This document shows, one piece after another, positions 1,342-4,113 of a stretch of DNA of 31,938 nucleotides. This DNA comes from a virus. The notes beneath the pieces were generated by a model. It searched no databases and was not told the DNA's origin. It worked only from the letters and a program-made list of their open reading frames with translations. Position numbers and translations under genes: made by a program. Location: the UHGV virus genome UHGV-0224535. One strand, given 5' to 3'. How positions within the stretch are numbered: the stretch's first letter is position 1; the number at the start of each line of letters is the position of its first letter.

Positions 1342-1555
1342 GGCAACAGGAAAGCAGATTGCGATCCTGGTTAACGAGGCGCAGTACATGTTTGTCCTTC
1401 AGCCGTGGTGTGTTGTAGATCTTAACGACAACTGTCGCCGCCACGCTGCGCGAAGTGCTGTTGGTATGAAAGGCTGGCAACCGCGCGACATGGAAAAATA
1501 TTGTGAATGGAAATTGGTGGCAAAATACACGGTCGATTATAAAGGGGTTTTCTGA
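1304..1555 (+). CDS. hypothetical small protein (83 aa); start uncertain (alternative ATG at 1385)
   Basis: Track ORF; overlaps the previous gene by 38 nt; its stop overlaps the next start (TGATG at 1553-1557). Confidence 0.45.
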   Translation: MKIRVSYFRAKDKATGKQIAILVNEAQYMFVLQPWCVVDLNDNCRRHAARSAVGMKGWQPRDMEKYCEWKLVAKYTVDYKGVF

Positions 1556-1779
1556 TGTTTGTAAAATGTATAAAGTCTCGTTTCCCTAATCTTTTTGTGG
1601 TTGATGAGATTTACGACATAGAAACGCTAATAAGCAGAACTAACGATATTCAGTACATTTATGATGAAGATGGCGATCCGTGGTTTTTTTATAACGATCT
1701 CAATGGTAGCGGATTCGTTGATGGCGTTGGCGGTAATGGTGTGTCAGTTGCGCTATTTATAAATGCAAATAAGGAATGA
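1555..1779 (+). CDS. small protein, member of paralogous family (motif F-x-x-G-x-IY ... D-D/E-x-G-x-W-x-F/Y-Y)
   Basis: MFVKCIKSRFPNLFVVDEIYDIETL...YIYDEDGDPWFFYND aligns position by position with the 1785, 2001, 2269 and 2511 ORFs. Confidence 0.6.
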   Translation: MFVKCIKSRFPNLFVVDEIYDIETLISRTNDIQYIYDEDGDPWFFYNDLNGSGFVDGVGGNGVSVALFINANKE

Positions 1780-1784
1780 ATATC

Positions 1785-1991
1785 ATGTATGTTAGATGCA
1801 CTGAATCAAAATCATCATGCTTTGAGGTTGGCGGAATATATACCGTAGCTCACCTGACTGGTGATGAACTTAACACCTAATACATTAAAGACGACCACGG
1901 AGACGCGTGGCGCTATTGGGATTGTTACGCACGGGGACACGTTACCAGTCATTTCGGTATGGAAGCGATCGTGCGTTTTGTTAAATGGTAA
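1785..1991 (+). pseudogene. paralog-family member interrupted by an in-frame TAA at 1878-1880 (nonsense allele, or read through)
   Basis: MYVRCTESKSSCFEVGGIYTVAHLTGDELNT*YIKDDHGDAWRYWDCYARG... is one continuous frame; the TAA aligns with a Gln in the 1555 paralog; both halves keep the family motifs. Confidence 0.5.
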
Positions 1992-2000
1992 GGGGTAAGC

Positions 2001-2258
2001 ATGAAGCATTTATATTTTGAGGTATTGCAGACGCGAGACCGCAATATTTTTGAAGAAGGGAAGATCTATTGCGGCGTTCAACTCCACGGCGCACCGGGCG
2101 GTGATGGTGCAATGGCGATAACTGGCGATGATGATAAGGTTTATTTCGCTTATGTTAGCCATATCAATAACGCCGCTGGTCTGTATATTTATCGCATAGT
2201 GCATGATTTCCGTGAGATCGCGGAGTTTTGCGCCCGCGAAGGCAGTAAACCGGAATAA
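2001..2258 (+). CDS. small protein, paralogous family member (85 aa)
   Basis: AAGGGG RBS; ...NIFEEGKIYCGVQLHG...ITGDDDKVYFAYV... matches the family motif. Confidence 0.6.
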   Translation: MKHLYFEVLQTRDRNIFEEGKIYCGVQLHGAPGGDGAMAITGDDDKVYFAYVSHINNAAGLYIYRIVHDFREIAEFCAREGSKPE

Positions 2259-2268
2259 GTGAGGGGTT

Positions 2269-2508
2269 ATGAACCGGAACCATAGATACCAGTGCACATA
2301 CTCACTATGCAGCGCGTTTTTTAAGAATGGCAAGATCTACGAAGTCGGCGCGGCATTGGTTGATGCAAAGGATCAGGAATATATTCACGCCATTACTGAC
2401 GACCAGGGCCGGTTATGGCGCTTTTATAAAATGGGGTACGGTACGGCGCTTGTTTATGCGCGTAATAGTAGTGGTGCTTTTGCTGCATTTTCATATGTCG
2501 GGGCGTAA
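2269..2508 (+). CDS. small protein, paralogous family member (79 aa)
   Basis: ...AFFKNGKIYEVGAALVDAKDQEYIHAITDDQGRLWRFY... matches the family motif. Confidence 0.6.
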   Translation: MNRNHRYQCTYSLCSAFFKNGKIYEVGAALVDAKDQEYIHAITDDQGRLWRFYKMGYGTALVYARNSSGAFAAFSYVGA

Positions 2509-2510
2509 AA

Positions 2511-2726
2511 ATGATTTTAACGTGTCACGGATCTGATCTTGATTGTTTCGAAGACGGTTGTCAGTACGAAGCGGAAAAGCCAGGCGGATTACCGAAAAAC
2601 CCGTTTTTAGTCGTTACAGACACTTACGGTCACTTATGGTATGCAGCGCCCAGCAAGGCGCGTGGCTGGTGGCTGATTCAGAATGAAGATCGCGAGGTTG
2701 TAGTGGCCCTCAGGCAGGACGAATAA
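2511..2726 (+). CDS. small protein, paralogous family member (71 aa)
   Basis: ...CFEDGCQYEAEKPGG...FLVVTDTYGHLWYAAP... matches the family motif; start 2 nt after the upstream stop. Confidence 0.55.
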   Translation: MILTCHGSDLDCFEDGCQYEAEKPGGLPKNPFLVVTDTYGHLWYAAPSKARGWWLIQNEDREVVVALRQDE

Positions 2727-2828: not shown

Positions 2829-3107
2829 ATGAAACGCTGGATTAACAAAGAAGTCGAATCTCGCTTAAACGCATTTTGGGAGATGGTGGAGAAAGAAGAC
2901 CCAGCACACGCTGCAAGCCCTTACCTGAACAACATCGAATATCACTACATTGCAGCAAACAACGCGGAGTTCGAAGAAGAAGGTGGAGCCGACAAGTTCG
3001 CACAAAGCAACGCATTCAACAACGCAAACGAAATGATGATGGCAGTCATCGAACAGGCAGAGGAAGACTACGAATGCAAATCACTTGAATTTGCACGCAT
3101 GGCATAA
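2829..3107 (+). CDS. hypothetical acidic protein (92 aa)
   Basis: Track ORF with GGAGGG RBS; strongly acidic (EFEEEGG..., EQAEEDYE). Confidence 0.6.
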   Translation: MKRWINKEVESRLNAFWEMVEKEDPAHAASPYLNNIEYHYIAANNAEFEEEGGADKFAQSNAFNNANEMMMAVIEQAEEDYECKSLEFARMA

Positions 3108-3116
3108 GGGGGAACC

Positions 3117-3257
3117 ATGAACGCTAACGCTAAATATCCGGCCTGGGTTTTCGAACTATACGCCCGCTACTTTGAAGTATTGGCACCAGGTGAAGAAGCA
3201 TTAAGCATTGACGAATACGCGGAGTGCTTAGGATTTAGAGGAGGAGAAGAAGAATAA
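3117..3257 (+). CDS. hypothetical small acidic protein (46 aa)
   Basis: GGGGG RBS 5 nt before ATG 3117; MNANAKYPAWVFELYARYFEVLAPGEEALSIDEYAECLGFRGGEEE*; below the track cutoff. Confidence 0.4.
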   Translation: MNANAKYPAWVFELYARYFEVLAPGEEALSIDEYAECLGFRGGEEE

Positions 3258-3269
3258 ACACGGGGCAGA

Positions 3270-3551
3270 ATGGCCCCATCAAACGGAGTAGAAATTATGG
3301 TTGTGATCAGACTATGGCGCGGAGTTAGTAGGCTTGATGGCACATACAGCCGTGTAATTGAGGTTGTTAACAATAGTATGTTTTATAAACTGGAATACAG
3401 CGAAAAAAGGGAGAATGAATATTTGAGCGAATCGACCCCTATGTGGTGCAAAGTGGCTGGCCTTTCTTCACTTATGCGTTGCGGGTTTTATACAGATTAT
3501 AACACGCTAACAGATGCCGAACTGGTGGCAACTCTTTACGGAGGAGAATAA
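3270..3551 (+). CDS. hypothetical protein (93 aa; alternative start 3297)
   Basis: Track ORF, co-directional packing. Confidence 0.5.
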   Translation: MAPSNGVEIMVVIRLWRGVSRLDGTYSRVIEVVNNSMFYKLEYSEKRENEYLSESTPMWCKVAGLSSLMRCGFYTDYNTLTDAELVATLYGGE

Positions 3552-3554
3552 ACA

Positions 3555-3878
3555 ATGACTAAATTTATCAGTGTTAAAGTTTTCCGTGGCACTATTCCAG
3601 AAAGTGAAAAATACGGCGAATTTAGTGGAATGCCTGGCGCATGTTTCCGTGTAGCTACAGAAGACGATAACCGTGTTAAATGTTTCCACATATCAGAACC
3701 GCCTTTCGATCCAGAACATCTTAAACATCCAGGTAAAATTAAAACGCTTATTTTCGCTTTTCTGACGATTAATCCTTACCCTGATCTTGAGGTTGATTTA
3801 GTCGGCGCGGAACTGGTCGCAGAATACAAAATAACCCCGGCAGAAAGCGGAGATTCTGAAATTGAGCGCATCAAATAA
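3555..3878 (+). CDS. hypothetical protein (107 aa)
   Basis: GGAGGAG RBS then ATG 3555. Confidence 0.6.
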   Translation: MTKFISVKVFRGTIPESEKYGEFSGMPGACFRVATEDDNRVKCFHISEPPFDPEHLKHPGKIKTLIFAFLTINPYPDLEVDLVGAELVAEYKITPAESGDSEIERIK

Positions 3879-4113
3879 ACCTTACAAAATCCGGTGTAAA
3901 GTGGAATATCCTGGCTTTACGACTGGATGCGAATACCTGGGCCATATGGGGTATGGCCCGTTCGGCGAGTTAGGAATGAATACGATTGACGACGACGGCG
4001 ACAACAGGACGCTTGATCTTGATAGCGATGATTTCGAATACATCCCGCCAGTCACTTACCGCGTCGTCGATGATTTCCTGGCTGAACATGAAGACGAGGA
4101 TGATGATGATTGA
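3862..4113 (+). CDS. hypothetical protein with poly-acidic C-terminus (EHEDEDDDD); TTG start at 3862 per track, true start uncertain
   Basis: Track ORF; GGAG upstream of the TTG. Confidence 0.45.
   Translation: MSASNKPYKIRCKVEYPGFTTGCEYLGHMGYGPFGELGMNTIDDDGDNRTLDLDSDDFEYIPPVTYRVVDDFLAEHEDEDDDD

Follow-up and report, generated by a model that had tools for sequence, protein, structure and literature searches.

The open reading frame (ORF) at 1785–1991 of the window, i.e., the whole 31,938-nucleotide stretch of viral DNA analyzed here (UHGV virus genome UHGV-0224535), is probably a young pseudogene, in which a C-to-T change at position 1878 replaced Gln32 (CAA) with TAA, most likely through neutral decay in a prophage. 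The frame comprises 68 codons and is open but for TAA at 1878–1880, as the first-pass annotation had claimed and as translation confirmed. When the frame is translated from 1776 to 1991, it gives MNIMYVRCTESKSSCFEVGGIYTVAHLTGDELNT, the single internal stop, YIKDDHGDAWRYWDCYARGHVTSHFGMEAIVRFVKW, and the terminal stop. The disrupted gene is made up of the following parts:

1771..1775, + strand: Shine-Dalgarno-like AAGGA, read from the sequence, 9 nt upstream of ATG 1785
1785..1880, + strand: 5′ part of the disrupted paralog, from ATG 1785 to the premature TAA, encoding 31 aa (MYVRCTESKSSCFEVGGIYTVAHLTGDELNT)
1878..1880, + strand: premature stop TAA; the mutation lies at T1878, where all complete relatives have C (CAA, Gln32)
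1881..1991, + strand: 3′ part, now untranslated, with codons 33–68 and the native TAA at 1989–1991

ATG 1785 is taken as the conserved start because the orthologues begin with MYVRC. A 34-aa product from ATG 1776 was considered and rejected, since it has no record anywhere and the conserved start is ATG 1785. The 31-aa product of 1785..1880 has been called as a gene in two Logan assemblies. For annotation purposes, 1785–1991 should be marked as a disrupted gene and not as a 31-aa or 34-aa ORF.

Twelve complete orthologous copies were compared, including five from complete E. coli genomes or prophages (L005–L009), three from IMG/VR contigs (L010–L012), and four from metagenome contigs (L013–L016). 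Each of them has a continuous 68-codon frame with CAA (Gln) at codon 32. The first-pass annotation had proposed a comparison with relatives at 1878, and the stop was present in none of the 12. In three of them (L005, L012, and L015), the C/T difference at 1878 is the only one from the 207-nt ORF of the window; thus, the view that a very recent nonsense mutation struck a redundant paralog gains direct support. The 111 nt of 1881..1991 are the same as in these three intact orthologues, with zero further changes after the stop, presumably because the mutation is recent.

For seven distinct intact orthologues, the dN/dS value was 0.22 overall, 0.35 for codons 1–31, and 0.14 for codons 33–68. These ratios show that purifying selection acts on the intact orthologues both before and after the stop, and the value of 0.14 for codons 33–68 means that the part after the stop is selected coding sequence in the relatives. 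The arrangement against which the first-pass annotation had set its own reading, namely two separate short genes that show no conservation across the stop, does not agree with these data: the relatives have one continuous, selected 68-codon gene, and two independent short genes at 1785–1991 are excluded by the continuous frame and the dN/dS values. Of the five complete RefSeq E. coli genomes in which the intact orthologue occurs, four lack an annotation for it (L005 and L006, both at 1746–1952; L008 and L009, both at approximately 1502–1708). Strain N25 is the sole one of the five in which it is annotated (WP_021519024.1).

The window covers the late region of a temperate E. coli phage or prophage of the mEp021-like type, to which Escherichia phages MagusPhagus, mEp010, mEp013, and mEp044, together with E. 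coli chromosomal prophages, are most closely related. All genes of the window lie on the + strand, and a block of small genes is followed by lysis, terminase, head, and tail genes. In the related prophages, the small-gene block is located between the late antiterminator gene and the holin/lysozyme (lysis) genes. The left end of the window is the end of an insertion sequence, 99% identical to the IS903 copies in phages P7, SJ46, and HK022:

1–141: IS903 end; the transposase C-terminus ends at 85, and the terminal inverted repeat lies at 124–141

A phage gene of 76 aa, located 1.6 kb upstream of the 1785 ORF, has lost its first 12 codons to this insertion. A 59-aa ORF of this gene is left at 156–335, and the gene is intact in L005 and L017. 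The contig probably breaks at this point because IS903 is repeated, and the insertion may have made the prophage of the window defective. A strong hairpin that resembles an intrinsic terminator, T-run included (AAGCGGGATAAAACCCGCTT TTTTTTGTT), is present at 364–383 on the + strand, just 3′ of the IS903-cut ORF and inside the co-directional small-gene block.

The disrupted copy belongs to a tandem family of which the window contains four further, intact members:

1555..1779, + strand: intact neighboring paralog, 74 aa, with Pro64Ser (C>T at 1744)
2001..2258, + strand: intact, more distant family member, 85 aa (alignments A1–A4); the family profile recovered close relatives of it
2269..2508, + strand: intact paralog, 79 aa, matching phrog_31142 with an E-value of 4.7e-5
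2511..2726, + strand: intact, more distant family member, 71 aa

The ORF at 3862–4113 is likely a further relative of the family. When the stop is read as Gln, the 68-aa product aligns with that of 1555–1779 over 55 residues spanning the stop, with 35% identity (BLASTP E-value of 3e-9), and Gln32 of the restored product is placed opposite Gln33 of the neighbor. The earlier claim that both halves align to the 1555 paralog with the stop opposite a Gln is therefore borne out. The restored product also gives a full-length family match with phrog_31142 (residues 1–68 on profile positions 1–71; E-value of 1.5e-38), and judging from these scores both matches are far beyond chance. The transition from CAA to TAA proposed in the first-pass annotation stands on the orthologues, all of which have CAA, but not on the neighbor, whose Gln codon is CAG (1651–1653).

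The family is narrow, with 29 cluster representatives at E-values up to 0.001 among 1.8 billion proteins, and its named members are nearly all from E. coli. No annotated function was found across the family members, no Pfam family was found for any of the paralogs, and the mEp phage paper is silent on these genes. Distant blastn searches of phage genomes with the ORF alone returned nothing; the relatives were obtained by megablast with a longer query and from E. coli genomes. A scan of GTDB genomes with a 30-nt pattern also found nothing. The tandem array appears to consist of small (~70–85 aa) all-β accessory proteins, as judged from the predicted fold described below.

Many of the family’s database entries carry a frameshift, a truncation, or a fusion between paralogs (P0003–P0007, P0020, P0024, P0026, P0028, P0043–P0046, and P0050). 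Decay is thus common in the family, which fits a tolerated loss of the 1785 copy. The lesions seen in public data, where the tandem family is highly plastic, take the form of frameshifted C-termini, N-terminal truncations, and paralog fusions at the conserved D-D-x-G-D motif. In P0005 and P0024, an N-terminus of the 1785 type or the 1555 type is joined to an acidic C-terminus of the 3862–4113 type; these fusions imply that paralogs recombined with the loss of ~2 kb.

An AlphaFold2 model of the intact protein was built from P0001 (93% identical) and 28 relatives, i.e., from a 29-sequence alignment. The model has a pLDDT value of 87 and six strands, at residues 2–8, 18–23, 32–35, 41–47, 50–54, and 61–67, strands 1 and 2 being joined by a long loop. 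The first model, built from a 6-sequence alignment, was poor (pLDDT of 59). The stop at codon 32 removes strands 3–6, so that the 31-aa product retains only two of the six predicted strands.

These features suggest the following course of events. A single C-to-T transition at 1878 would have turned the Gln32 codon CAA into TAA. Ribosomes would start at ATG 1785, terminate at UAA-U, and release a 31-residue peptide that corresponds to strand 1, the long loop, and strand 2 of the predicted six-stranded barrel only. With this truncation, the function of the protein is most likely lost. Met59 is the first in-frame start past TAA 1878–1880, with no ATG, GTG, or TTG earlier; re-initiation past the stop is therefore unlikely, and the C-terminal part should not be made alone. 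No effect is expected on the next gene (ATG 2001), since it has a ribosome-binding site of its own. The loss would be tolerated if the gene is dispensable or backed up by its paralogs, and the 1785 paralog appears to be dispensable, at least in the prophage state.

The predicted six-stranded β-barrel of the family has the same fold as Gp54 of Escherichia phage Bas11 (PDB 9AXB), and the likeness is one of predicted fold only. Bas11 Gp54 (66 aa) folds into a six-stranded barrel with a rare topology; it is non-essential, and its function is unknown (PMC11578894). It shares only 9% identity with the protein studied here. Bas11 is a virulent, T1-like phage, whereas the phage of the window is temperate and mEp021-like, and, unlike Gp54, the window proteins form a tandem array of paralogs. 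A Foldseek search against the PDB gave no significant match and did not recover Gp54. An HMM/profile search of the PDB sequences did not retrieve Gp54 either and returned only a weak repeat-motif match to a β-propeller lactonase. Matches to β-propeller families (FG-GAP, Reg_prop, and NHL) were obtained with the A2 profile and P0060–P0069 at E-values of 1e-6 to 1e-4, and these were not taken as homology. They center on a shared turn motif (D-D-x-G-x-W / D-x-D-G-x-W) and probably reflect motif convergence.

An exact look-up of the 31-aa product located the TAA allele in the Logan assemblies of SRR9670883 (L017) and ERR10498846 (L018). Over 4.7 and 2.7 kb, respectively, these contigs show 0 substitutions relative to the window and only homopolymer-length indels. 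Indeed, the only differences are one- or two-base changes of homopolymer length at window positions 1992, 2725–2726, 2740, and 4216; they are mostly intergenic, and that at 2740 is common to L017 and L018. Such length differences could be sequencing-technology artefacts or real variants, and they suggest that at least some of these data sets derive from error-prone reads. L017 runs on into phage sequence where the window has IS903 (1–141); thus, the TAA allele occurs on at least two backgrounds, with and without IS903.

A second lineage-specific C>T change, at 1744, is common to the window, L017, and L018 and causes Pro64Ser in the 1555–1779 protein, which is otherwise identical in L005–L007 (WP_021519023.1). 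Relative to L015, only two substitutions are present in 1.1 kb, both of them C>T and each altering the protein of a paralog. One further contig, L019 (ERZ27293770 k109_49313), was rejected as a carrier of the TAA allele, since it matched the 31-aa product merely because the contig stops at the C of CAA. Its last base is the first base of this codon, i.e., the variable base itself. This end point could be a coincidence, or it could be an assembly-graph branch arising from both alleles in that sample.

The explanation that the TAA is a sequencing or assembly artefact and that the true base is C is very improbable. It has in its favor that a single base differs from otherwise identical relatives, and that the Logan contigs with the TAA show homopolymer indels relative to the window, so that some of the data may come from error-prone reads. 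However, a homopolymer-length error does not give a substitution, T was called in the window and in the assemblies of two separate runs from different archives (SRR and ERR), and all three share the C>T change at 1744 with no other substitutions. Since the TAA allele recurs in two other read sets, a one-off assembly or sequencing error is unlikely. Judged from the assemblies, the TAA allele is genuine and inherited and did not arise in assembly; a systematic miscall common to these data sets, or heteroplasmy, may still lie behind assembly-level TAA calls. The first-pass annotation had offered a sequencing or population variant as one option, and of this the population variant stands, whereas the one-off sequencing error is unlikely. 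Its other option, that the stop is read through or suppressed, fares poorly. According to this explanation, the TAA is decoded through read-through, a suppressor tRNA, or a reassigned codon, and the full-length protein is still made. The frame downstream of the stop is intact, and a moderately stable RNA structure (−16.7 kcal/mol, z of −2.6) takes in the stop. Yet the intact frame can be explained simply by the youth of the mutation, and the local RNA structure is made of codons of the family’s conserved motif and carries no comparative support. The stop is found in no relative; hence, there is no conserved recoding site. Its context is UAA-U, which in E. coli ranks with the most efficient signals for termination. 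Codon reassignment is ruled out by the use of TAA as the main stop codon of the window, where it terminates 26 of the 38 genes, including the native end of the disrupted gene itself. A search for tRNA genes with ARAGORN found none in the window, and the annotation of the closest complete prophage lists none for its left arm; for these regions, a suppressor tRNA encoded by the phage was therefore dismissed. There was also no Rfam match within the window. Decoding of the stop is thus hardly credible.

Neutral decay has further to be weighed against the possibility that the loss is itself positively selected, the intact protein being sensed by a host defense protein in the manner of Bas11 Gp54 and truncation allowing the phage to escape. 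Bas11 Gp54 directly activates the defense protein CapRelSJ46, and one of its escape mutants carries the premature stop W43*; not all close Gp54 homologues, however, trigger CapRel (PMC11578894). In the family studied here, two other lineages lack the same C, with CCC changed to CC and a frameshift after Thr31 (P0006 and P0007; window-equivalent 1876–1878). The deletion allele is found in L020 (SRR13992036) at 183–401, which over 1867 nt shows no other difference from the prophage of strain GN05505, and in L021 (SRR21482994) at 3001–3324, on a diverged background. The coincidence of lesions at 1878 was estimated, post hoc, as roughly a 1–10% event; it may point to a hot spot or to selected truncation at 1878 but is not compelling. 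CAA32 is the only codon of the ORF from which C>T makes a stop, and nine runs of at least three bases, CCC among them, were counted; three lesions at one base could therefore be due to chance. Moreover, loss-of-function escape would be expected at many positions, the family has no known sensor, no sequence similarity to Gp54 was detected, the Foldseek search against the PDB was empty, and in the databases intact alleles predominate (clusters of 53 and 49 member sequences). Positively selected loss is accordingly unlikely. A broader proposal, in which base 1878 is a recurrent inactivation point of a Gp54-like protein, with loss of four strands selected via host immunity sensing, or else a true mutational hot spot, is quite doubtful. 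The evidence fits either neutral decay or selected loss, and neutral decay in the prophage is the most likely reading. More work might be worthwhile only on the Gp54-like predicted fold and the recurrent lesions at one base, and an unannotated tandem family with a predicted Bas11 Gp54 barrel and frequent natural knock-outs and fusions would offer a candidate set for phage proteins that interact with host defense.

Comparison with known systems places the disrupted ORF among ordinary pseudogenes. Its restored 68-aa product matches phrog_31142, a family without an annotated function, from end to end; the neighboring paralogs match it more weakly, and the window copy differs from the family in being broken at codon 32. 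Programmed read-through resembles the present case in that the frame stays open and protein-like after an in-frame stop. The A1 protein of phage Q-beta, for example, arises by read-through of UGA. In contrast to such systems, the stop of the window is present in no relative, its context is UAA-U and not a leaky UGA context, and the part after it is the core of a single domain and not an extension. The closest parallel is provided by the nonsense pseudogenes of decaying (“grounded”) prophages of E. coli (PMC6379469), in which a point mutation inactivates a dispensable accessory gene. As in those prophages, an IS insertion is found in the phage and the relatives keep the intact gene. No substantive difference separates the two; in the window the decay is at a very early stage, with a single substitution in the ORF and no secondary lesions. 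Collectively, these comparisons indicate that the feature is of an already known kind, an ordinary young pseudogene in a prophage accessory array.
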